A DNA stretch of 39,772 bases from assembly GCA_016195045.1 (NCBI GenBank), contig JACQAJ010000022.1, positions 1 through 39,772 on the forward strand, read 5' to 3'. Shown here piece by piece: positions 6,512 through 39,772 of this stretch. The DNA is from Candidatus Azambacteria bacterium. GTDB lineage: Bacteria > Patescibacteriota > Minisyncoccia > GWC2-36-17 > JACQAJ01. The stretch's first letter is position 1. Each line of letters opens with the position of its first letter. Position numbers and translations under genes: made by a program. The notes under the pieces are model-generated. The model saw nothing but the letters and a program-made list of their open reading frames with translations. It made no database searches and was not told the origin of the DNA.

Positions 6512-6590
6512 ACGATTTATGATTTATGATTTATGATTTATGATTTATGAATAATTTAAAATTCTTAAATCAAAAACCTTAAATCTAAAA
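6512..6590. repeat. Heptad-arm hairpin element, family A (rpoB-rpoC spacer)
   Basis: (GATTTAT)x5 at 6514-6548, then gaataatttaaaattc, then degenerate TTAAATC units. It fills the whole 79-nt spacer. Confidence 0.85.
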
Positions 6591-10201: not shown

Positions 10202-11029
10202 ATGTTTGAAGAAATTATTGAAATTGTTGGTAAACAAAAATGACCTACGAGTATAATTCTCGCTGGCGTACATGGTGATGAAAAATGTGAAGTAGAAGTA
10301 TTGGAAAAAATCTTAACCAACCTTAAAATAGAAAATGGACGAGTTTTTTTAGGTTATGGAAATCCACGAGCCATTAAAGGAAGTCAAAGATTCACAGAGG
10401 CTAATTTGAATAGAATGTTCAAGAAAGATGACTTGCTTTTGGATAATGAAAAGAAGAGTTATGAATATAGACGAGCACAATTTCTAAAAAGATACCTAAA
10501 CAAAGCCGAAGCGCTTTTGGATATTCACGCGAGTCATACACCAACAAGCAAACCTTTTATTATTTGTGAAAGAAATGCGGAAAAGATTACAAAATATTTA
10601 CCTATTGATCTTATTGTGTCTGGTTTTGAAAAGGTACAGCCAGGCGCAACCGATGGCTACATGGATAGTATTGGTAAAATAGGAATTTGTGTTGAGTGTG
10701 GTTATTTAGGTAATCCTAAATCAACAAAAATAGCAGAAGAGATTTTTTTCGCTTTCTTGAAAGCAAGAGAACACGTGACGAACAATCAAACATTAACAAA
10801 AAAAGTATATATACAAATAAATAGTCTTTACATAACTAAGACAGATAATTTTACCCTGTCGAAATCATTTGATGATTTTGAGAGAATATCAAAAGGACAA
10901 GTTATTGGGATTGATGAGGAAGAAAGAGTTGTAGTCAAAAGAGATAGTATAATTACTTTCGCACGTAATCGAAAGCAAATTGGTGAGGAGGCTTTTCTAT
11001 TAGGAAAAGAAAGGGACGATTTTGTGTAA
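10202..11029 (+). pseudogene. Succinylglutamate desuccinylase/aspartoacylase (AstE/AspA, M14-like) family gene interrupted by in-frame TGA
   Basis: The frame from ATG 10202 reads MFEEIIEIVGKQK*PTSIILAGVHGDEKCEVEVLEKIL. The TGA at 10241-10243 lies in frame with ORF 10301-11029. The zinc-ligand HGDE motif sits between the TGA and the ORF-track TTG start. Confidence 0.6.
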
Positions 11030-19065: not shown

Positions 19066-19169
19066 AAGTGAAAAGTGAAAAGTGAAAAATTATTCACTTT
19101 TAACTTTTAGTTTTTAGTTTTTAGTTTTTAGTTTTTAGTTTTTAGTTTTTAGTTTTTAGTTTTTAGTTT
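19066..19169. repeat. Heptad-arm hairpin element, family F, strongly asymmetric
   Basis: (GTGAAAA)x3 at 19068-19088, ttatt loop, cacttttaactttt, then (AGTTTTT)x8 at 19109-19164 plus a partial unit. The last units encode the pyrH C-terminus and stop codon. Confidence 0.85.
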
Positions 19170-23121: not shown

Positions 23122-23201
23122 AAACTAGTTGGTAGTTGGTAGTTGGTAGTTGGTAGAAAATCTACCGTTCACTACTCACTACAAACTACTCACTACAAAC
23201 C
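23122..23201. repeat. Heptad-arm hairpin element, family B copy 1 (rplO-secY spacer)
   Basis: (TTGGTAG)x4 at 23129-23156, aaaat loop, then ctaccgttcactactcactacaaactactcactacaaac. The rplO stop (23193-23195) lies inside the right arm. Confidence 0.85.
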
Positions 23202-23630
23202 AACCTTGCCGCCAGCCTTTTCAATACTCGTCTTGACTGACTTAGAAACTGAAACCCCGAAAATATTTAATTTCTTAGTCGACTCTGCTAAACCTAAAAT
23301 TTTAATACTAGGAATTTTCCCAGATACCAAATCTACTAATTTCCTGGCTACCAAACTCTTAGGATTAATATTCTCATTATTCTTAAAATTCTCATTAACT
23401 ATTTTAAGACTGACGATAGCTGGTCTTTCATAAAAACCCTTCATTTTCCAGCCCCGAAGTTTAGGAAATTTTTTTATAAGACCATAAATAGCTGGTCTGA
23501 TTTTTTTACTACCAGATCTTGCTGTTTGACCCTTGGTTCCTCGACCAGAAGTTGTTCCTCTCTTGCCACCTCGGCCAATCCTTTTTTGATCCTTCTTGGG
23601 ATATTTTGGTTTTAATTCATTTATTTGCAT
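23193..23630 (-). CDS. rplO: 50S ribosomal protein L15
   Basis: KRIGRGGKRGTTSGRGTKGQTARSG. Its position is between S5 and SecY. Confidence 0.95.
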   Translation of the reverse strand: MQINELKPKYPKKDQKRIGRGGKRGTTSGRGTKGQTARSGSKKIRPAIYGLIKKFPKLRGWKMKGFYERPAIVSLKIVNENFKNNENINPKSLVARKLVDLVSGKIPSIKILGLAESTKKLNIFGVSVSKSVKTSIEKAGGKVGL

Positions 23631-23669: not shown

Positions 23670-24101
23670 TTATTTTAATATCTTAAATGCTTCTATGGCC
23701 GCCAAAGCATTATTTAATTTATTTTTAGTTTTTGACAAAATCTTGGCGGTCACATTTTCCACTCCCGCTAACTCACAAACAATTCTCACTGGCCCACCAG
23801 CAATAATTCCTCTGCCAATCTTAGCTGGTTTAAAGATCACTCGAGCTGAACTAAATTTGGCCTCTACTTCATAAGGAATTGTTTGATTCTCTCGGGGTAC
23901 TAAAATTAAATTCTTTTTAGCATCCCGAACTGCCTTATCAATCGAAGAAGCTACATCTAAACCATTGGCTAAACCAATCCCAACTTGCCCGTCATGATTC
24001 CCAACCACAATAGCGGTTCGAAAAGAAAAACGTTTACCCCCAGCTACCACCCGAGTCACCCTTCTAATATCTAAAGTTTTTTGATCAAATTCTGTTTTCA
24101 T
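23670..24101 (-). CDS. rpsE: 30S ribosomal protein S5
   Basis: RVTRVVAGGKRFSFRTAIVVGN. The ORF-track start at 24125 is a TTG inside repeat D1, so ATG 24101 (MKTEFDQ) or 24122 is more plausible. Confidence 0.9.
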   Translation of the reverse strand: MKTEFDQKTLDIRRVTRVVAGGKRFSFRTAIVVGNHDGQVGIGLANGLDVASSIDKAVRDAKKNLILVPRENQTIPYEVEAKFSSARVIFKPAKIGRGIIAGGPVRIVCELAGVENVTAKILSKTKNKLNNALAAIEAFKILK

Positions 24102-24195
24102 AAAATTAGTTATAAAGTTCATCAAATTATAAAGTTATAAAGTTCATCGAATTTCTGACTTTATAAACTTTCAACCTTACAAACTTTCAACTTAT
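24102..24195. repeat. Heptad-arm hairpin element, family D copy 1 (rplR-rpsE spacer)
   Basis: AAAGTTN-type units on the left (agttataaagttcatcaaattataaagttataaagttcat) and AACTTTN-type units on the right (gactttataaactttcaaccttacaaactttcaactt). Pairing is imperfect. Confidence 0.7.
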
Positions 24196-25180: not shown

Positions 25181-25271
25181 AATATAATCCACGAATAGCA
25201 ACGAATTTATTACGAATGGCGACGAATATTCGTTGCCATTCGTGATTAACATTTGTTGGTATTCGTGTATT
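25181..25271. repeat. ACGAAT nested-palindrome element, family C copy 1 (rpsH-rplF spacer)
   Basis: cacgaatagcaacgaatttattacgaatggcgacgaat | attcgttgccattcgtgattaacatttgttggtattcgtg, with the symmetry centre at 25227/25228. Confidence 0.85.
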
Positions 25272-25661
25272 TTACCAGACTTCACAGATTAGTTCGCCGC
25301 CTAACTTAACCTTCTTGGCTTCTTTATTACTCATTAATCCTTTTGAGGTCGAAATAATCACTAAACCATGTCCTGATCTCACTGATCTAATTTCATCACT
25401 TTTTACATAAAGACGTTGGCTGGGACGGCTCATTCTCCTTAATCCAGTCAAGCTAGGGACCCCATTCTCGTTTAATAATTTTATCTCCAAAAATTTCTTA
25501 ATCTTTCTTCCTTTTCTGGATACAACGCCAACAAATTTATTTTCAGATAAAACTTTGGCGATCTCAAATTTTATTTTAGAATGAGGAATCGAAATAGAAT
25601 CGCGCTTTAAAATATTAGCGTTTCTTATTCTTGTTAACATATCACTGATTGGATCGGTCAT
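25272..25661 (-). CDS. rpsH: 30S ribosomal protein S8
   Basis: MTDPISDMLTRIRNA N-terminus, 129 aa. Confidence 0.95.
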   Translation of the reverse strand: MTDPISDMLTRIRNANILKRDSISIPHSKIKFEIAKVLSENKFVGVVSRKGRKIKKFLEIKLLNENGVPSLTGLRRMSRPSQRLYVKSDEIRSVRSGHGLVIISTSKGLMSNKEAKKVKLGGELICEVW

Positions 25662-25776
25662 AATAATTAGTTTATCAAGTTATAAAGTTGAAAGTTATAA
25701 AGTTAAAAAAACAAATACAAAATTAATTTTCTTTTTACTTTATAACTTGATGAACTTCTACAACTTTTAACTTATT
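25662..25776. repeat. Heptad-arm hairpin element, family D copy 2 (rpsN-rpsH spacer)
   Basis: Fills the spacer from stop to start. It is the reverse complement of the copy at 27011-27120, with about 6 differences in about 110 nt. Confidence 0.85.
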
Positions 25777-25962
25777 TTACCAGCTAGCTTTGGTCATTCC
25801 AGGAATTTTGCCTTCTCTCACTAATTCCCGAAAACAAATCCGACAAATATCAAAATCTCTCATATAGCCATGCGCCCGCCCACAACAAAAACAACGTCGT
25901 ACTAAACGACTTGAAAATTTGGGCTCTTTTTTACTTCTTGCCACGACTGATGTTTTGGCCAT
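25777..25962 (-). CDS. rpsN: 30S ribosomal protein S14, zinc-binding type Z
   Basis: 61 aa, with CFCCGR .. CRICFRE providing four Cys. Confidence 0.93.
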   Translation of the reverse strand: MAKTSVVARSKKEPKFSSRLVRRCFCCGRAHGYMRDFDICRICFRELVREGKIPGMTKASW

Positions 25963-26060
25963 AAACTAGCTTATTAGCTTTTTAGCTTGTAGCTTTTTAG
26001 ATAATTAGATTTTTTAAATTTGATCTAATAAGCTAAAAAGCTACAACCTACGAGCTAATT
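25963..26060. repeat. Hairpin element, family E (rplE-rpsN spacer)
   Basis: ttgtagctttttagataattagat pairs with atctaataagctaaaaagctacaa (23 of 25 positions). The outer arms are TAGCTTT-type 7-9 nt repeats. Confidence 0.8.
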
Positions 26061-26612
26061 TTATTTCTTTCCTTTTTTAATTTCAACTTTCTTTAATGGG
26101 AATCCTAGGGCTCGATATAATTCTACTGCCGTTTCCCGATCACTGGAATTTGTCACAATGGCTACTTCAAAACCAAAAATTAATCTGGAATTAGCCACCT
26201 CAGTAAAAATTATTTGCTCTTTAATACCGATATTCAAATTTCCTGCTTGATCGACATTTTTTAAATCAAGTCCCCTAAAATCACGGGACCGAGGCAAGGC
26301 GATACCAATCAATCTTTCCAAAAAATCATACATTCTTTTTCGTCGCAAAACTATCCGATAACCAATAAGCATTCCCTCTCTAAGTTTAAAACCAGCAATT
26401 GATTTTTTAGCCCTTCGAGGCTCTGGTTTCTGACCAGTAATTAAAGTTAAATCATGTTCAATCTCCTTGACTATCTTATCATCATTTGAATACTTGCCAA
26501 TACCAACATTAACTACTGCCTTAGTCATCCTCGGCACTAAATTTATATTGGAATAATTAAACTTTTTTTTAATTAATGGAATAATTTCTTTTTTATATTT
26601 TTCGGATAACAT
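26061..26612 (-). CDS. rplE: 50S ribosomal protein L5
   Basis: The start is probably MLSEKYKKEIIP at 26612. The ORF-track TTG start at 26627 lies in repeat C2. Confidence 0.93.
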   Translation of the reverse strand: MLSEKYKKEIIPLIKKKFNYSNINLVPRMTKAVVNVGIGKYSNDDKIVKEIEHDLTLITGQKPEPRRAKKSIAGFKLREGMLIGYRIVLRRKRMYDFLERLIGIALPRSRDFRGLDLKNVDQAGNLNIGIKEQIIFTEVANSRLIFGFEVAIVTNSSDRETAVELYRALGFPLKKVEIKKGKK

Positions 26613-26707
26613 AAATTTAATCCACAAATGGCGACGAATTAATTACGAATAGCGGCGAATATTCGTTGCCATTCGTGAATAATATTCGTTGGCATTCGTG
26701 TATAGTT
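26613..26707. repeat. ACGAAT nested-palindrome element, family C copy 2 (rplX-rplE spacer)
   Basis: ccacaaatggcgacgaattaattacgaatagcggcgaat | attcgttgccattcgtgaataatattcgttggcattcgtg, centred at 26660/26661. Confidence 0.85.
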
Positions 26708-27010
26708 TTAGATTTCTGCCTGACATTTTTTACAAATCCTGACTTTCTTATTATCAATAAATTTTACAGACTGTCTTGTTGGTTTTGAGCAATTTGGACA
26801 GACTATCATTGCTCGAGAAGCCGGAAAAGGCATTGAAATTTCTAACCGAGTTCCTTTTTCACCTTGTTTTTTTGGTTTAATATGTTTTTTGACAGTATTA
26901 AGTTTATCAACAATAATCTTGTCTTTTATCGGTAAGACTTTGACAATCTTTCCTTTCTTATTTTTATCCTTACCGGCTAATATTAATACATGATCGCCTT
27001 TTTTTAACAT
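26708..27010 (-). CDS. rplX: 50S ribosomal protein L24 (C-terminal CxxC..CxxC form)
   Basis: The real start is MLKKGDHVLILAGKDK at 27010. The KOW motif is present and the C-terminus reads CPNCSK..CKKC. Confidence 0.92.
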   Translation of the reverse strand: MLKKGDHVLILAGKDKNKKGKIVKVLPIKDKIIVDKLNTVKKHIKPKKQGEKGTRLEISMPFPASRAMIVCPNCSKPTRQSVKFIDNKKVRICKKCQAEI

Positions 27011-27120
27011 AATAAGTTGAAAGTTTATCAAGTTCATCAAGTTATAAAGTAAAAAGAAAATTAATTTTGTATTTATTTTTTAACTTTATAACTTTCAACT
27101 TTATAACTTTATAAACTAAT
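27011..27120. repeat. Heptad-arm hairpin element, family D copy 3 (rplN-rplX spacer), inverted relative to copy 2
   Basis: aataagttgaaagtttatcaagttcatcaagttataaagt / aaaaagaaaattaattttgtatttatttttt / aactttataactttcaactttataactttataaact. Confidence 0.85.
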
Positions 27121-27486
27121 CTAAACTAGATCTTCCGCCATTGAAGCAATCTTAGTGAAACCTTTTTCCTTCACTTCTTTGGCAATGGGACCAAAAATTC
27201 GCGATGCCTTGGGATCCTGACCATCCAAAATAACCACCGCATTCTCACTAAATCTGATATAGGAACCGTCAGACCGACGATAAGATTGTTTTTGTCTAAC
27301 AATCACCGCTTTGTGAACCTCTTTCTTTTTGACTGCCTTTCTTGGAGAAACTTCCCTAACTGAAACTACCACAATATCACCTAATTGACCATAGCGTCTA
27401 ACTGATCCTCCTAAAACCTTAAAACACTGGACCTTAATCGCCCCGCTATTATCAGCTACTTTTAAAATTGAACGTAATTGAATCAC
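27121..27486 (-). CDS. rplN: 50S ribosomal protein L14
   Basis: (M)IQLRSILKVADNSGA, with a GTG start at 27486. Confidence 0.95.
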   Translation of the reverse strand: MIQLRSILKVADNSGAIKVQCFKVLGGSVRRYGQLGDIVVVSVREVSPRKAVKKKEVHKAVIVRQKQSYRRSDGSYIRFSENAVVILDGQDPKASRIFGPIAKEVKEKGFTKIASMAEDLV

Positions 27487-27564
27487 GAATATTTAAAATT
27501 TATGATTTCTGATTTATGATTTATGAATAATTTTGAAATTCTTAAATCTTAAATCTTAAATCTT
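27487..27564. repeat. Heptad-arm hairpin element, family A copy 2 (rpsQ-rplN spacer)
   Basis: tttatgatttctgatttatgatttatgaa / taattttgaaa / ttcttaaatcttaaatcttaaatctt. The rpsQ stop (27556-27558) lies in the right arm. Confidence 0.88.
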
Positions 27565-28454: not shown

Positions 28455-28536
28455 AGATTAGTTGATAGTTGGTAGTTGGTAGTTGGTAGAAAATCTACCG
28501 TTCACTACTCACTACAAACTACTCACTACAAACTAA
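28455..28536. repeat. Heptad-arm hairpin element, family B copy 2 (rpsC-rplP spacer)
   Basis: Its 74-nt core differs from copy 1 (23127-23200) at a single position (ttgatag versus ttggtag). Confidence 0.88.
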
Positions 28537-29235: not shown

Positions 29236-29317
29236 GTTGGTAGTTGGTAGTTGGTAGTTGGTAGTTGATAGTTGGTAGATTTCTACAAACTACTCACTAC
29301 AAACTACTCACTAATTT
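29236..29317. repeat. Heptad-arm hairpin element, family B copy 3 (rplV-rpsC spacer)
   Basis: The left arm is expanded to six TTGGTAG/TTGATAG units (29236-29279). The loop is short (attt) and the right arm is ctacaaactactcactacaaactactcacta. Confidence 0.85.
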
Positions 29318-29689: not shown

Positions 29690-29768
29690 AATTAATAGAA
29701 TATAGAATATAGAATATAGAAGTTTGGGGATCATGAAATTATTCCAAATTCTATATTCTATATTCTAT
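29690..29768. repeat. Heptad-arm hairpin element, family G (rpsS-rplV spacer), near-perfect stem
   Basis: tagaatatagaatatagaatatagaa-g-tttgg (29696-29727) pairs with ccaaa-t-ttctatattctatattcta (29744-29767). That gives about 25 bp with one G-T pair and a 16-nt loop. The rpsS stop at 29765-29767 is inside the stem. Confidence 0.9.
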
Positions 29769-30073: not shown

Positions 30074-30156
30074 GTTTTAATTTCAGATTTATGATTTATG
30101 ATTTATGATTTATGAATAATTTTGAAATTCTTAAATCTTAAATCTTAAATCTTCTT
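30074..30156. repeat. Heptad-arm hairpin element, family A copy 3 (rplB-rpsS spacer)
   Basis: (GATTTAT)x4, gaataattttgaaattc, then (TTAAATC)x3. It differs from copy 2 at one position over about 66 nt. Confidence 0.88.
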
Positions 30157-30987: not shown

Positions 30988-31076
30988 AAAATAATCCACA
31001 AATAACAACGAATTTATTACGAATGGCGACGAATATTCGTTGCCATTCGTGAATGACATTCGTTGCCATTCGTGTC
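30988..31076. repeat. ACGAAT nested-palindrome element, family C copy 3 (rplW-rplB spacer)
   Basis: It shares an identical 45-nt core, acgaatttattacgaatggcgacgaatattcgttgccattcgtga, with copy 1. Confidence 0.88.
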
Positions 31077-31538
31077 TTAGATACCGAAATCTATTTTTTC
31101 TCCCACTTTTAAAGTCACAACAGCTTTTTTGTGACCTGGTTGCCAACCAATCACTCGGCCTCGCTTTTTTATCTTACCAGCAGTTTTCAAAATATTTACC
31201 CCTACTACCTTAACTTGATAAAGATCTCTGATCGATTTTTTAATTTCATTCTTACTAGCATCATCGATAATCTCAAAAGAATATTTATTAAGATCTTTTA
31301 AAATTGTTGCCTTTTCGGTAATAATGGGATTTCTCAAGGACTGACTAATTCGATTCTTAAAATCTGGGGTACCCAAAACAGGATTACCTTTAATAGTCTC
31401 GCTGCTTTTCCTAACTGAAGTTTTCTTATTTAATTTAGGTTTAGAAATTTTAGAGACAGAAGATTTATCAGTTATTTTCAAGCCAGCAGTATTTTTTGTC
31501 TTTCTAAAACCTGAACTAAATATTGGAAGTTTAAACAT
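31077..31538 (-). CDS. rplW: 50S ribosomal protein L23 with possible ~55-aa Lys/Ser-rich N-terminal extension
   Basis: The conserved core is RNPIITEKATIL .. KKAVVTLKVGEKIDF. The only ATG is at 31538. An internal TTG (..PVLGTPDF) would give a canonical-length protein. Confidence 0.85.
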   Translation of the reverse strand: MFKLPIFSSGFRKTKNTAGLKITDKSSVSKISKPKLNKKTSVRKSSETIKGNPVLGTPDFKNRISQSLRNPIITEKATILKDLNKYSFEIIDDASKNEIKKSIRDLYQVKVVGVNILKTAGKIKKRGRVIGWQPGHKKAVVTLKVGEKIDFGI

Positions 31539-32279: not shown

Positions 32280-32415
32280 AATTTTAACTTATAGTTTATT
32301 AGTTTATCAAGTAATAGGAAATATAAAAAATTTTTGAGGTCGAGGCTTTCTCTTTTACAAATTACATATAGAAAGCCGAGGCTCACACGAAAATTTTTTA
32401 CATTTCCTATTACTT
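32280..32415. repeat. Composite hairpin element, family I (rplC-rplD spacer)
   Basis: The outer arms are aagtaataggaaatataaaaaattttt (32309-32335) and gaaaattttttacatttcctattactt (32389-32415). The inner stem is ggctttct / agaaagcc. The rplC stop (32410-32412) is in the outer arm. Confidence 0.8.
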
Positions 32416-33051: not shown

Positions 33052-33154
33052 ATATCATCAAACAAAAAATCGAGACTAGCCCGATTTTATTGTCTGGCTT
33101 TCATTTCTACTATCTTATAAGTTATTGGTAGTTATTCATTGAATAATAAAATGA

Positions 33155-33553
33155 TTAGACCTTAATTTCAATATCAACACCAGCTGGTAAACTTAAATTA
33201 GTCAAAGCTTCGATGATTTTCGAACTCGGATTGATAATATCAATTAGTCTTTGGTGAATCCGAATTTCATATTGTTCCCTAGAATTCTTATGAACAAAAG
33301 TAGAACGATTAACCGTGTACTTTTTTATTTGACTAGGTAATGGAACTGGACCAACAATCTCAGCGTCAAATCTTTCGATATTTTCAATAATTTGACGAGT
33401 ACTATTGTCAATAATCTTACTGTCGTAAGATTTTATTTTAATCCTAATTCTTTGCTTAACTTCTGTCTCTTTCGATTTCTCGGTAATCTTAGTAACTATC
33501 TTCTTTTTCGATTCCGCTTTTTCTTTAGTTGTATTTGTTAAAGTATTTACCAT
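33155..33553 (-). CDS. rpsJ: 30S ribosomal protein S10 with Lys/Glu-rich N-terminal extension
   Basis: The core is QRIRIKIKSYDSKIIDNSTRQIIE .. LPAGVDIEIKV. I chose ATG 33553 (MVNTLTN). The ORF track uses the GTG at 33577. Confidence 0.9.
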   Translation of the reverse strand: MVNTLTNTTKEKAESKKKIVTKITEKSKETEVKQRIRIKIKSYDSKIIDNSTRQIIENIERFDAEIVGPVPLPSQIKKYTVNRSTFVHKNSREQYEIRIHQRLIDIINPSSKIIEALTNLSLPAGVDIEIKV

Positions 33554-33590
33554 GTTGATTTTATTAAATAAAACCACGACTAACTGATCA

Positions 33591-35092: not shown

Positions 35093-35806
35093 TTATTTTA
35101 ATACCGACTGGTAGTTCTTGAGCAGGAAGACGACCTCTTTTCTCAGATGGGTTTTAACCCATGCCTTTTCCTTTTCACCCGACAGAAGCTCGGCCAGTCC
35201 TCGCAAAATTTCGTTGTCTTTGACCGCTTCGACAACGGGGATGCAATCGGCCATATATTCTTTGATAGTTTTTCCGGTTCGAGCTTTGATTACTTCAGCA
35301 TTGATATCCCAGTGATTTGTACCAAAGAACCAGATATCGTAAATATCACGCATCGCCGTTTCGCTTCGAGTTGTCAGAGCCGCCAGCTTACTGGCAAAGA
35401 GATAATCTTTCTTGCCAGCCAACATAGAGATACCAAGATATTCTTTTATTTCGTAATGCTCTTTGATCTCTGGCATCAGGATTCTCACCTTCACTTCAAC
35501 TTTGACATTGTGGTCGGTATCGCCATAGAAGAGCAGAAAAAAAATAGTGTTTCGTTTAATATAGTCGTCTTTGATATCTCCATACTTTCCTAACATGCCA
35601 TGGATTTTTTCATGGACTAGTTTTTGAGTGGCTTCGTCTGTGGAAAATAGATCGAAATCGAGGTCTACCGAGAAACGTGTCAGGCCATAGAAAAAGTAAG
35701 CACAGGTGCCGCCCTTGAATCCCATGAGAGATGAGATGGAGGTATCAAAATAAATCTCCCGCAATATCTGTCCCATGATCAGTTGATGTTTTTCTTTATT
35801 GAGCAT
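35093..35806 (-). CDS. AbiEii/AbiGii-family nucleotidyltransferase toxin (DUF1814)
   Basis: FKGGTCAYFFYGLTRFSVDLDFDLF signature. It overlaps the upstream antitoxin gene by 11 nt. Confidence 0.85.
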   Translation of the reverse strand: MLNKEKHQLIMGQILREIYFDTSISSLMGFKGGTCAYFFYGLTRFSVDLDFDLFSTDEATQKLVHEKIHGMLGKYGDIKDDYIKRNTIFFLLFYGDTDHNVKVEVKVRILMPEIKEHYEIKEYLGISMLAGKKDYLFASKLAALTTRSETAMRDIYDIWFFGTNHWDINAEVIKARTGKTIKEYMADCIPVVEAVKDNEILRGLAELLSGEKEKAWVKTHLRKEVVFLLKNYQSVLK

Positions 35807-36374
35807 AGTTTTTTTGGTATTGAGCGACTCGCTTTATTAATTGCTTGTTATCGTAAATCTTGGCCAGCTCCAAGCACGTCTCCCAGTTAATAGATCGCAA
35901 GTTGTCAAAATAAAATTTAGGAGATAAATAAATGGTATCAAGAAATGCCCGCTCCGGTGTAGCGATACTGTAATTTTTTTCATTCTTAACGCCAAGTGCA
36001 TTGAAGAGAACGCTATCTTTCAGTTTTCTAAATGTAATTGTATGATTGCCAATCTTTTTTACAGTGGGATAGGGACCGGCTACAAAAATCGAGTCATGAT
36101 GTTGGAAAATAATACCGGCTTCTCGAAGGACTATCTCAAAACTTATGTAGGAGGGAGTATAGATACTCGTTGCCAATTCCTTCGGATTGTAATTTTTATC
36201 TTTTGCAAAAACACCGCGAGTCAGACGGATCAGTGATCCTTCTTTGGCGTAGTATTTAATCTTTGAGATAAGGTTAACTGTATTAGTTTCCTCCCAAATC
36301 AAAGCGATATCCTTTATGGTCAGGATTGTCTTAAGAGATTCGTATAATTTGGCAATAAGATTGTTGGTAGCCAT
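35796..36374 (-). CDS. AbiEi-family type IV antitoxin / transcriptional regulator
   Basis: The N-terminal winged-helix block ends in EGSLIRLTRGVFA. Its position is immediately 5' of the AbiEii gene. Confidence 0.75.
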   Translation of the reverse strand: MATNNLIAKLYESLKTILTIKDIALIWEETNTVNLISKIKYYAKEGSLIRLTRGVFAKDKNYNPKELATSIYTPSYISFEIVLREAGIIFQHHDSIFVAGPYPTVKKIGNHTITFRKLKDSVLFNALGVKNEKNYSIATPERAFLDTIYLSPKFYFDNLRSINWETCLELAKIYDNKQLIKRVAQYQKNYAQ

Positions 36375-37481: not shown

Positions 37482-37709
37482 AAACCAAGACTAGAAATGT
37501 CATACCCTTAATCATTGTGCCATAATTTACCTAGGTCGCAAAAATTTAGTAACCTAGTAAAAATTATGGAACAACAATTAATCACTATGACTCTTGATCA
37601 TCCCTAGAGAAATCAATTAACAAGAAATATTTCACCAAGAAAAAGTCGCACAAATTTAAATTTAAAAAATTCCAAATTTGTCAAGGTATGACATTTCTAG
37701 TCTTGGTTT
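37482..37709. repeat. 228-bp element bounded by perfect 25-bp inverted repeats (MITE-like or invertible segment)
   Basis: aaaccaagactagaaatgtcatacc at 37482-37506 is the exact reverse complement of 37685-37709. There is also an internal nested repeat, ccataattt .. aaattatgg. Confidence 0.8.
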
Positions 37710-39147: not shown

Positions 39148-39772
39148 TGAAGTGGTCCTGGTTGTCTAGACAGTAATTGTGGATAATTTGTGTTGAACTG
39201 ATGGCGTTAAGATTTTGGATTTTTCTTTCGACCTTTGAAAATTAAAATACATATTAGCAGGGGTTTGTTTATTTAATGACTGGTGCTTTCGTTTATGGTT
39301 ATAAAACAAGAAGTATTCAGTTAGCCCAGTCTTGGCTTCATTAATATTTTGATAAGATTTTAAGTAAACATTTTCATATTTAACCGTTCGCCATAATCGT
39401 TCAGTGAAGATATTATCCAGACAACGACCTCGACCATTCATACTAATTTTAACCTTTTTATCTTGAAGTGGTTTCAGAAATTGTTCTGAAGTAAAATGGG
39501 AACCTTGATCGGAATGGATAATTTCTGGAGTCTCATATTTTAACTGAGCCTGATCGAGAGCTTCAATAATTAATTTAGTATCGTGTCGAGTCGAAGTCAC
39601 CCAGCCAACTATCTCTCGAGTGAAGGCATCGACAACGGTGGCTAGGTAAATAAATCTTCCTAGGAACCAAAGATAAGTGAAATCTGAGACCCAAACTTGA
39701 CTAGGACGATTGATTATTAGACTCTTAATTAAGTTAGGAATCATCGCATTCTTTTGACCTTGGTCAGATTTT
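39148..39772 (-). mobile_element. Partial IS3-family insertion sequence (3' end inside window)
   Basis: The OrfB-type transposase ends at 39166. The sequence tgaagtggtcctggttg starting at 39148 looks like an IS3-family terminus, which begins with 5'-TG. As far as I recall it resembles IS911-type ends. Confidence 0.6.
39166..39772 (-). CDS. IS3-family transposase OrfB (DDE / rve integrase core), 5' end outside window
   Basis: VWVSDFTYL, HSDQGSHFTS and YNHKRKHQSL blocks. The frame stays open upstream of the ORF-track Met to the window edge (..KSDQGQKNAMIPN). Confidence 0.9.
   Translation of the reverse strand, partial: KSDQGQKNAMIPNLIKSLIINRPSQVWVSDFTYLWFLGRFIYLATVVDAFTREIVGWVTSTRHDTKLIIEALDQAQLKYETPEIIHSDQGSHFTSEQFLKPLQDKKVKISMNGRGRCLDNIFTERLWRTVKYENVYLKSYQNINEAKTGLTEYFLFYNHKRKHQSLNKQTPANMYFNFQRSKEKSKILTPSVQHKLSTITV

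Follow-up and report, generated by a model that had tools for sequence, protein, structure and literature searches.

Inverted copies of a palindromic repeat, and further hairpin families, in the intercistronic spacers of a ribosomal-protein operon of Candidatus Azambacteria

Contig JACQAJ010000022.1 of a Candidatus Azambacteria bacterium (assembly GCA_016195045.1), analyzed over positions 1 to 39,772 of the forward strand (39,772 nucleotides, nt) and referred to as the window, carries an S10/spc ribosomal-protein operon together with rpoBC, all coded on the minus strand. According to a previous sequence-only reading, two spacers of this operon, between rpsN and rpsH and between rplN and rplX, are filled by the same element of about 110 nt in opposite orientations. 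The comparison of these spacers with each other, with the other junctions of the operon, and with relatives and metagenome contigs revealed that they are two copies of one discrete palindromic repeat, termed family A, which is present in both orientations. The coordinates of the copies and of related features are summarized in Table 1.

Global alignment and a self-BLAST of the window both matched the reverse complement of copy 1 to copy 2, with 103 of 111 positions identical (92.8%, E 3e-40, 161 bits), and repeat finding on the window returned the same inverted pair. The near-identity described earlier was therefore confirmed, while the count of about six differences including one indel was slightly low: the eight differences consist of substitutions and two 1-nt indels. 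Copy 1 has four additional nucleotides (TATT) ahead of the ATG. The inverted alignment of the two spacers scored 172, compared to 63 (~74% identity) in the same orientation. An asymmetric 24-nt centre, AAAAAGAAAATTAATTTTGTATTT, is the same in both copies, and the arms showed 90% and 86% identity under a model of inversion, compared to 69% and 63% for a flip confined to the loop. Because the arms as well as the centre fit the inverted model, the whole element was inverted, not the loop alone. The non-palindromic centre is thus part of the match, as stated before, and the likeness is not restricted to the low-complexity arms, a concern that the sequence-only reading had itself raised.

Both copies indeed extend from stop to start codon. 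On one side, the alignment reaches the first base past the stop codon; on the other, it lies 0–4 nt from the start codon. Copy 1 is bordered by the TAA of rpsN (25777-25779) and the ATG of rpsH (25661-25659), and copy 2 by the TAG of rplN (27121-27123) and the ATG of rplX (27010-27008), a start that was selected by comparison with the orthologue in contig L081 and with other L24 N-termini.

The family A element comprises ~107–111 bp, 5'-AATAAGTT ... AAACTAAT-3', with a G+C content of 15–17%. Its arms consist of tandem 7–8-nt units, whose core is AAGTT on the 5' side and AACTT on the 3' side, and enclose an unrelated centre of 25–35 nt. As RNA, copy 1, with tandem units of period 8/15, is predicted to form a hairpin of -25.0 kcal/mol (z -4.6), and copy 2 one of -22.3 kcal/mol in the mRNA sense (z -3.8); the element can also fold as single-stranded DNA. 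The inner-stem pattern of family A was found twice in the window, with 0.00 occurrences expected from shuffles.

The sequence-only reading treated this pair alone, and the colonization of the whole operon by hairpins went unremarked. Of the 21 junctions that run from tuf to secY, 17 have spacers of 69–130 nt that fold as long imperfect hairpins, as does the spacer between rpoB and rpoC, and the eight hairpins tested reached z values of -3.5 to -6.7 against dinucleotide shuffles. Their arms, too, are tandem units of 7–8 nt (10 nt in one family). Self-BLAST and an all-versus-all comparison of the spacers revealed at least four families with two to three copies each and about 87–98% identity: family A (AAGTT / AACTT; two copies, a degenerate third and a terminal fragment), family B (TAGTTTG/TAGTGAG ... 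CTACCAA; three copies, period 7), family C (ACGAAT ... ATTCGT; three copies), and family D (GATTTAA ... ATAAATC; three copies, one of them between rpoB and rpoC, period 7). Tandem Repeats Finder assigned the arms a period of 7 in B, D, and the ATAGAAT hairpin, of 8/15–16 in A and the TAGCTTTT hairpin, and of 10/23 in C. With 70–130 nt and without an open reading frame (ORF), the elements are small (<300 bp), non-coding and multi-copy within 40 kb, as is typical of miniature inverted-repeat transposable elements (MITEs). Outside rpoBC and the ribosomal operons, the intergenic regions of the window are ordinary, save for one array-hairpin downstream of pyrH.

Table 1. Repeat copies, related hairpins, and the genes flanking the family A pair (positions in the window)
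Feature	Coordinates	Strand	Location and remarks
Family A copy 1	25662..25776	(-)	rpsN→rpsH spacer, 115 nt; reference strand is the mRNA (minus) strand
Family A copy 2	27011..27120	(+)	rplN→rplX spacer, 110 nt; inverted relative to copy 1, reference strand antisense to mRNA
rpsN (S14, 61-aa zinc type)	25777..25962	(-)	upstream of A copy 1
rpsH (S8)	25272..25661	(-)	downstream of A copy 1
rplN (L14)	27121..27486	(-)	upstream of A copy 2
rplX (L24)	26708..27010	(-)	downstream of A copy 2
Degenerate A-like hairpin	24102..24195	(.)	rplR→rpsE; AAGTT/AACTT units, other loop, orientation not decidable (72–75% identity to the A copies either way); fold -22.1 kcal/mol, z -3.5
A-like terminal fragment ACTTGATAAACTAAT...	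32280..32316	(-)	3' end of rplC→rplD spacer, just before the rplD start; 15-nt end motif in common with A copy 1, read from the spacer sequences
Family B copy	23122..23192	(-)	rplO→secY; provides the rplO stop codon
Family B copy	28455..28536	(-)	rpsC→rplP; 98.5% identity with the copy at rplO→secY, co-oriented
Family B copy	29236..29317	(-)	rplV→rpsC; 86% identity, co-oriented
Family C copy	25181..25271	(-)	rpsH→rplF; z -6.7
Family C copy	26613..26707	(-)	rplX→rplE; 88–89% identity, co-oriented
Family C copy	30988..31076	(-)	rplW→rplB; 91% identity, co-oriented
Family D copy	6512..6590	(-)	rpoB→rpoC
Family D copy	27487..27555	(-)	rpsQ→rplN; final rpsQ codons and stop (AAGATTTAA) read as an extra repeat unit
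Family D copy	30074..30156	(-)	rplB→rpsS; 95% identity, co-oriented, z -4.9
Single-copy hairpin, TAGCTTTT / AAAAGCTA units	25963..26060	(-)	rplE→rpsN, between both A copies
Single-copy hairpin, ATAGAAT / TTCTATA units, period 7	29690..29764	(-)	rpsS→rplV

Relatives were identified via ribosomal protein L5, as no match was returned for the exact rpsH and rpsN proteins of the window. The best matches in the genome collection were Patescibacteria with only 45–57% identity, the named protein matches were likewise Patescibacteria, and three close contigs (L081–L083) showed 86–88% identity. In L081 (7.8 kb, rpsC to secY, 86% L5 identity), all 14 of 14 junctions are hairpins of 59–118 nt. About ten of them hold a different family, CTAGCTC ... 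GCTAG ... GCTGTGTTTTT-ATG (the CTAG family), and A-like arms occur at rpsN→rpsH and rpsC→rplP. Contigs L081 and L082 are 99.77% identical, and 8 of their 12 differences fall into two spacers (p = 9e-4). Three of these spacer differences are exactly 7 nt apart, a pattern suggestive of slippage or conversion among units or copies.

More distant relatives provided the empty sites that the sequence-only reading had proposed to look for. In L204/L205 (62% L5 identity), about 10 of 23 junctions are filled; rplN→rplX measures 17 nt, rpsN and rpsH overlap, and rplE→rpsN is 1 nt long. Most junctions of L206 (61%) are empty. Occupancy hence rises from L206 over L204 to the window and L081, which are about equal; the latter two also differ at rplP→rpmC, which has 28 nt in the window and 110 nt in L081. 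In a survey of 80 genome loci, median spacers were 5–30 nt in most bacteria and in many Patescibacteria, and a minority of distant Patescibacteria (L002, L007, L009, L011, and L026) exhibited heptamer-armed hairpins of their own in the same operon. Given the empty relatives and the short median spacers in the survey, the filled junctions are therefore derived. Filled and empty orthologous sites are thus found, as for MITEs, in relatives too distant for exact insertion or excision borders to be read.

Furthermore, the same junction is held by different families in close relatives, and families recur in other genomes at junctions that are not orthologous. A D-like element is located at rpsN→rpsH of L026, the ATAGAAT family at rplF→rplR of L204 and rplV→rpsC of L081, and the AAAAGCTA family, with its window copy at rplE→rpsN, at three junctions of L204.

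A metagenome scan with the 12-bp inner stem of family A, allowing any loop and thereby imposing 24 bases, matched at least 120 contigs (L084–L203) of 22–50% G+C. Among the matches listed, the flanks go on with AAGTT/AACTT units beyond the imposed bases and the loops are unrelated; at 85 of 122 sites, a start codon follows within ~45 nt downstream, and 33 are clear stop-hairpin-start junctions, with 5 convergent and 1 divergent. The downstream genes in these matches are diverse housekeeping genes (atpC, ybaB, nifU, pilus ATPases, dnaA, hisS, rpsJ, recA, and secY). One contig, L084, carries an A element at atpD→atpC with a loop homologous to that of the window, oriented as window copy 1. Several orthologous junctions carry A-type hairpins at 55–95% protein identity, with different unit numbers and loops. 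These pairs hinted at deep positional conservation, an idea weakened by a patchy presence: the hairpin lies upstream of dnaA in L196 and L119 (Magasanikbacteria-like), but no A-type hairpin was found upstream of dnaA or within 21 kb in the closer relatives L210 (73% DnaA identity) and L211 (83%). In the viral collection, only three contigs matched, one of them inside large inverted repeats of a 7.6-kb segment, which gave no evidence of phage carriage. In this last contig (L207, from IMG/VR), two A-type hairpins (2729-2779 and 10417-10475) lie within longer inverted repeats of >100 nt, including GCCAGATGCCA motifs, that flank the 7.6-kb segment; the segment may be a composite mobile element.

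The orientation independence proposed earlier holds for the family A pair, not as a general rule. When the window families B, C, and D were taken together with the CTAG elements of L081, 15 of 16 copy comparisons were co-oriented with transcription (p = 5e-4), and the A pair is the exception. Its termini (AATAAGTT... / ...AACTTATT) are near-symmetric, as are the AAGTT and AACTT arms. In either orientation, family A presents an AAGTT-unit 5' arm, an AACTT-unit 3' arm, a TAAGTT-type end at the stop codon, and ...AACT(A/T)ATT before the ATG. Inversion therefore alters little but the loop, and family A probably tolerates it owing to this near-symmetry. With the other families mostly co-oriented, independence of orientation is a property of the near-symmetric family A; in the comparison between genomes, a second near-symmetric family, ATAGAAT, has opposite orientations in its window and L204 copies. 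The bias in the remaining families suggests either RNA-level selection or a strand-specific mechanism of the kind known from HUH transposition of single strands.

A test for optimization of the fold on the mRNA strand was negative for the window hairpins (n = 18, p = 0.84), for those of the A type (n = 72, p = 0.66), and for operons of other Patescibacteria (n = 70). Rfam gave no match at gathering score over the whole window, and only miRNA-precursor models appeared below threshold (E 0.08–0.9). With sense and antisense folds alike in stability and no Rfam match, the earlier argument against a strand-specific linear RNA motif stands.

Several known classes were considered and rejected. For integron attC sites, the core order is reversed (5' ..AAGTT.. 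/ ..AACTT.. 3'), the flanks are a conserved essential operon instead of cassettes, and no IntI was found. Resemblances to LexA boxes, IHF sites, and attC were dropped as core order or consensus did not fit. Heptanucleotide direct repeats share the period of 7/8 and the proximity to starts, but every array here has an inverted partner. A replacement of the Shine-Dalgarno (SD) sequence by the hairpin was not specifically supported: only 3 of 81 hairpin-adjacent starts have an SD-like motif, but SD-like motifs are generally rare in these contigs (28% vs. 21%, counted leniently). Family A lacks the GTAG of repetitive extragenic palindromic (REP) sequences and REPINs and is poor in G+C; only family B reiterates GTAG.

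Based on these results, we consider it fairly probable that the hairpins belong to MITE/REP-like, non-autonomous palindromic families that were copied into intercistronic junctions and are co-transcribed as hairpins. A mobile palindromic-type origin, already favoured by the sequence-only reading, agrees with the several families in the window, their sharing with other genomes at non-orthologous junctions, the empty sites, and the patchy presence. Several families would have been copied into ancestrally short or overlapping junctions of S10/spc and rpoBC until nearly all were full, either by transposition in trans or by recombinational or template-switch copying. The exact filling of spacers could be explained by a compact operon tolerating insertion only in the few bases between stop and start. 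The ends of the elements are also rich in stop codons (TAA/TAG in terminal units), and between the stem and the ATG a short A/U-rich tail stays unpaired. After co-transcription, the element would fold as a long imperfect hairpin with periodic internal loops and would probably serve, at least passively, as an intercistronic processing or stability element; such a role is plausible by analogy to REP, ERIC, Correia, and T7 RNase III sites. The inverted A copy would represent a whole element installed the other way round and tolerated through its near-symmetric arms and termini.

A number of observations speak against this interpretation. No target-site duplication was found at the A copies (flanks GGTAA|...|TATTATG and AACAT|...|CTAAAC), where one of 1–2 nt is possible in A+T-rich DNA, and the terminal inverted repeats of family A (AATAAGTT / AACT(A/T)ATT) are its outermost arm units. 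Pfam scans of the 40-kb window revealed no element-linked transposase, only an rve fragment (39166-39744) without matching ends; likewise, no RAYT was present among the window proteins scanned, and no parent insertion sequence (IS) was found within the 40-kb window, from which alone the per-family copy numbers derive. Random MITE insertion does not predict the 15:1 orientation bias. Furthermore, between L081 and L083 (94% identical), the spacers differ by 4.4% and third codon positions by 12.9% (p = 7e-5), with 3.0% for first and second positions. An alignment of 14 CTAG copies contains 27 consensus pairs, 4 of them with compensatory double changes and few broken, and G.U pairs are more numerous on the sense strand of this family. 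Both the slow divergence and the CTAG pairing indicate that the palindrome is under constraint or is repaired from a template. 'Purely selfish' is therefore an inadequate description, because slow divergence together with compensatory changes suggests constraint.

These data lead to the main rival, namely that the hairpins are chiefly selected cis-acting mRNA elements which became multi-copy through gene conversion between equivalent spacers, not through mobility. They might act as RNase III/RNase Y sites, as 3'/5' stabilizers, or by bringing stop and start together for re-initiation in an SD-poor genome. The stop-to-start span with its short unpaired A/U tail ahead of the ATG would suit such roles, as would the ribosomal-protein genes behind hairpins, which lack an SD sequence (a few other window genes have GGAGG), and the concentration of the elements in the most highly expressed operons. 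The approximately threefold slower divergence relative to third codon positions, the compensatory CTAG pairs, and the orientation strongly co-directional with transcription point the same way. In L081, 12 of 14 spacers have the better fold on the sense strand, which also has more G.U pairs (49 vs. 20), but these copies are a single, non-independent family, and the asymmetry is absent from the window, the A-type hairpins, and the other Patescibacteria operons. Rarity of SD-like motifs throughout the contigs makes a replacement of SD unspecific. Additionally, the junctions are empty in the 61–62% relatives and patchily occupied upstream of dnaA, a given junction is occupied by different families among close relatives, the A pair works either way round, and no Rfam family matches. 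Weakened by the empty sites, the family turnover, the patchiness, and the missing strand asymmetry, this explanation is possible but doubtful as an account of its own. It does not exclude copied repeats, and overlaps with them if mobile hairpins were domesticated.

More speculatively, and in our view rather unlikely, the hairpins could constitute a dedicated, Patescibacteria-wide system of intercistronic expression instead of junk DNA, in which a sequence-specific factor of these SD-poor, highly streamlined genomes reads the reiterated cores (for example AAGTT every 7–8 nt). Cleavage and stabilization of the mRNA would then be directed by the stop-to-start hairpin, or ribosomes that terminate on one side of the stem would be passed over it to the following start codon, in analogy to ribosome shunting, and a strand-specific installation of copies, coupled to replication or transcription, would account for the 15:1 bias.

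Improbable, too, is a role as double-stranded DNA, with the arms as converging arrays of a short site for a nucleoid-associated, recombination, or uptake-related protein and the hairpin as incidental. The AAGTT core is kept over contigs of 22–50% G+C and at the same junctions at 55–95% protein identity while linkers, unit number, and loops vary; linkers are often mismatched where cores pair, and the fold energies are symmetric between strands. However, 24 of the conserved bases were imposed by the search pattern, the unrelated units elsewhere in the operon (GATTTAA, TAGTGAG/CTACCAA, ACGAAT, and CTAGCTC) would require several factors, of which no candidate was identified, and the compensatory changes of the CTAG family preserve pairing.

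A local, independent origin of the two A copies, or a flip in situ through recombination between the arms, is very improbable. The arms are slippage-prone tandem repeats, the 7-nt-spaced changes between strains show active slippage or conversion, and hairpin loops between inverted repeats are known to flip. Independent origin, however, cannot yield an E of 3e-40; the asymmetric 24-nt centre is identical, and the arm-specific mismatches follow the inverted model. As the alignment extends to within 0–4 nt of both ends, an in situ flip would require a crossover right at the termini, within a few bases.

Ordinary intrinsic terminators, attenuators, or promoters, or an assembly artefact, as might be suspected from one terminator-like stem with a T tract (rpsJ→rplC) and from a fold-back at the end of contig L083 typical of assembly trouble at palindromes, are effectively refuted by the terminator and promoter scan (9 terminator-like sites vs. 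5.8 expected, no A–D hairpin among them and none with a T tract; 55 promoter-like sites vs. 39.8 expected, not concentrated in hairpins) and by intact genes in conserved order, copies that are 87–98% and not 100% identical, and the same architecture in independent assemblies.

The rpsJ→rplC spacer (33052-33154) is the sole operon spacer with such a stem and T tract (33066-33088), which could be an attenuator at the place where other bacteria regulate the S10 operon. The end of L083 (1377-1536) is the reverse complement of the preceding ~160 nt with the pivot on a hairpin element, a fold-back assembly artefact caused by these palindromes.

Palindromic intergenic repeats as such are well known. 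ERIC/IRU elements of Enterobacteriaceae and Yersinia are imperfect palindromes of ~127 bp that are transcribed, intergenic (also within operons), non-coding, present in both orientations, and reported to affect the stability of flanking mRNA. The window elements resemble them in size, in being imperfect palindromes that fold as RNA, in their intercistronic sites in both orientations, and in the lack of coding capacity. ERIC/IRU differ in having one consensus and no tandem-heptamer arms, and in their restriction to Gammaproteobacteria, and they are not known to saturate operons; no sequence similarity to the window elements exists, and no Rfam match links them. Correia elements of Neisseria and the RUP, BOX, and SPRITE elements of Streptococcus pneumoniae are non-autonomous inverted-repeat elements of ~100–150 bp near gene ends, co-transcribed as hairpins; Correia RNA is cut by RNase III. 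MITEs of the Correia/RUP type can supply stop codons or alter gene ends and are polymorphic in presence or absence between relatives. For Correia, RUP, BOX, and SPRITE, the terminal inverted repeats are defined, whereas those of family A coincide with the outermost arm units; they also differ from the window elements by a target-site duplication (TA or another), by a plausible parent IS, and by the lack of tandem arms. The RNase III sites of the phage T7 early region are long imperfect stem-loops between cistrons, and protective hairpins can remain after cleavage. These sites offer a functional analogy only, being orientation-specific and not multi-copy mobile families; by this analogy, the window hairpins may be cleaved.

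REP/BIME and REPIN-RAYT sequences are extragenic palindromes, often intercistronic, whose hairpin families evolve within a genome and have been described as stabilizers of mRNA 3' ends (PMC3116915, PMC3337134, PMC12306157). They are 20–40 nt long and G+C-rich, with a 5' GTAG and a RAYT tyrosine transposase, whereas the window elements comprise 70–130 nt, are A+T-rich, and have tandem-unit arms. The closest published analogy to the start-adjacent heptamer units is provided by the TAACTGA direct repeat of Beggiatoaceae (PMC4679880), one of the heptanucleotide direct repeats, which also include TAACTGA repeats of cyanobacteria and the cyanobacterial STRR heptamers. The TAACTGA units, of period 7, lie a few bases from start codons, seemingly replacing SD, and occur in ribosomal-protein operons with a patchy phylogeny (PMC4679880). 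TAACTGA and STRR heptamers form direct one-strand arrays without a complementary arm (one inverted case is reported) and of unrelated unit sequence; each array of the window, in contrast, is paired with an inverted array in an interrupted stem of 30–40 bp.

The literature searched on palindromic, hairpin, or intergenic repeats of Patescibacteria contained no description of the elements, and the heptamer-armed hairpin architecture is absent from Rfam. Apparently new are this architecture, the saturation of a ribosomal-protein operon, and the spread across Patescibacteria. The genomes of Patescibacteria are among the smallest and most streamlined of all bacteria. In this organism, nearly every junction of its most highly expressed and most conserved operon nevertheless holds ~100 extra bases, and the families to which these belong change junctions and reappear throughout the phylum. 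If selfish, the elements would mean that streamlined epibiont genomes are not shielded from repeat invasion; they would also offer a strain-typing marker and a known explanation for assembly breaks and miscalled gene starts. If functional, they would represent an SD-independent organization of polycistronic expression in a major, poorly understood bacterial branch.

The elements adjoin or overlap gene ends, and ORF finders run downstream genes on through the 3' arms. Family B provides the TAG of rplO (23193-23630), and the C-terminus of L15 is 22 residues shorter than in L081; that of S5 (rpsE, 23670-24101) is 10 residues shorter, which suggests that the elements remodel protein tails. Between rpsE and rplO, the window has no L30 gene. 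The ORFs of S10 (rpsJ, 33155-33577) and L23 (rplW, 31077-31538) are ~40–50 residues longer at the N-terminus than usual, representing either real lysine-rich extensions or miscalled start codons beside the spacers.

Further motifs were observed outside the families described above. The spacer downstream of pyrH and upstream of an RRM-protein gene (19066-19169) contains a hairpin of AAGTGAA units (19071-19108), followed by nine perfect TTTTAGT repeats; it shows the array-plus-hairpin style of the operons, yet lies outside the ribosomal operons and is strongly asymmetric. In the distant Patescibacteria L002 (rplX→rplE, rplE→rpsN, and rpsN→rpsH) and L009 (rplO→secY), a distinct conserved motif stands right before the start codons, GGTGCTCAATTTTGTAACC-(short stem-loop GTTCGTG..CACGGAC)-AAAAGTGGC, which is not a heptamer hairpin. 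A classical MITE-like unit unrelated to families A–D was found at 37482-37709, with perfect 25-nt terminal inverted repeats (AAACCAAGACTAGAAATGTCATACC) around 178 nt that include an inner 21-nt inverted repeat; it is located in a 593-nt gap between a DUF2268 gene and orf308. Next to tuf lies a gene for an AbiEii-type toxin, preceded by a partner ORF (35093-36374), and the rve fragment at the window end is a truncated, IS3-like integrase; the two regions are mobile or defence islands on the flanks of the core operons.

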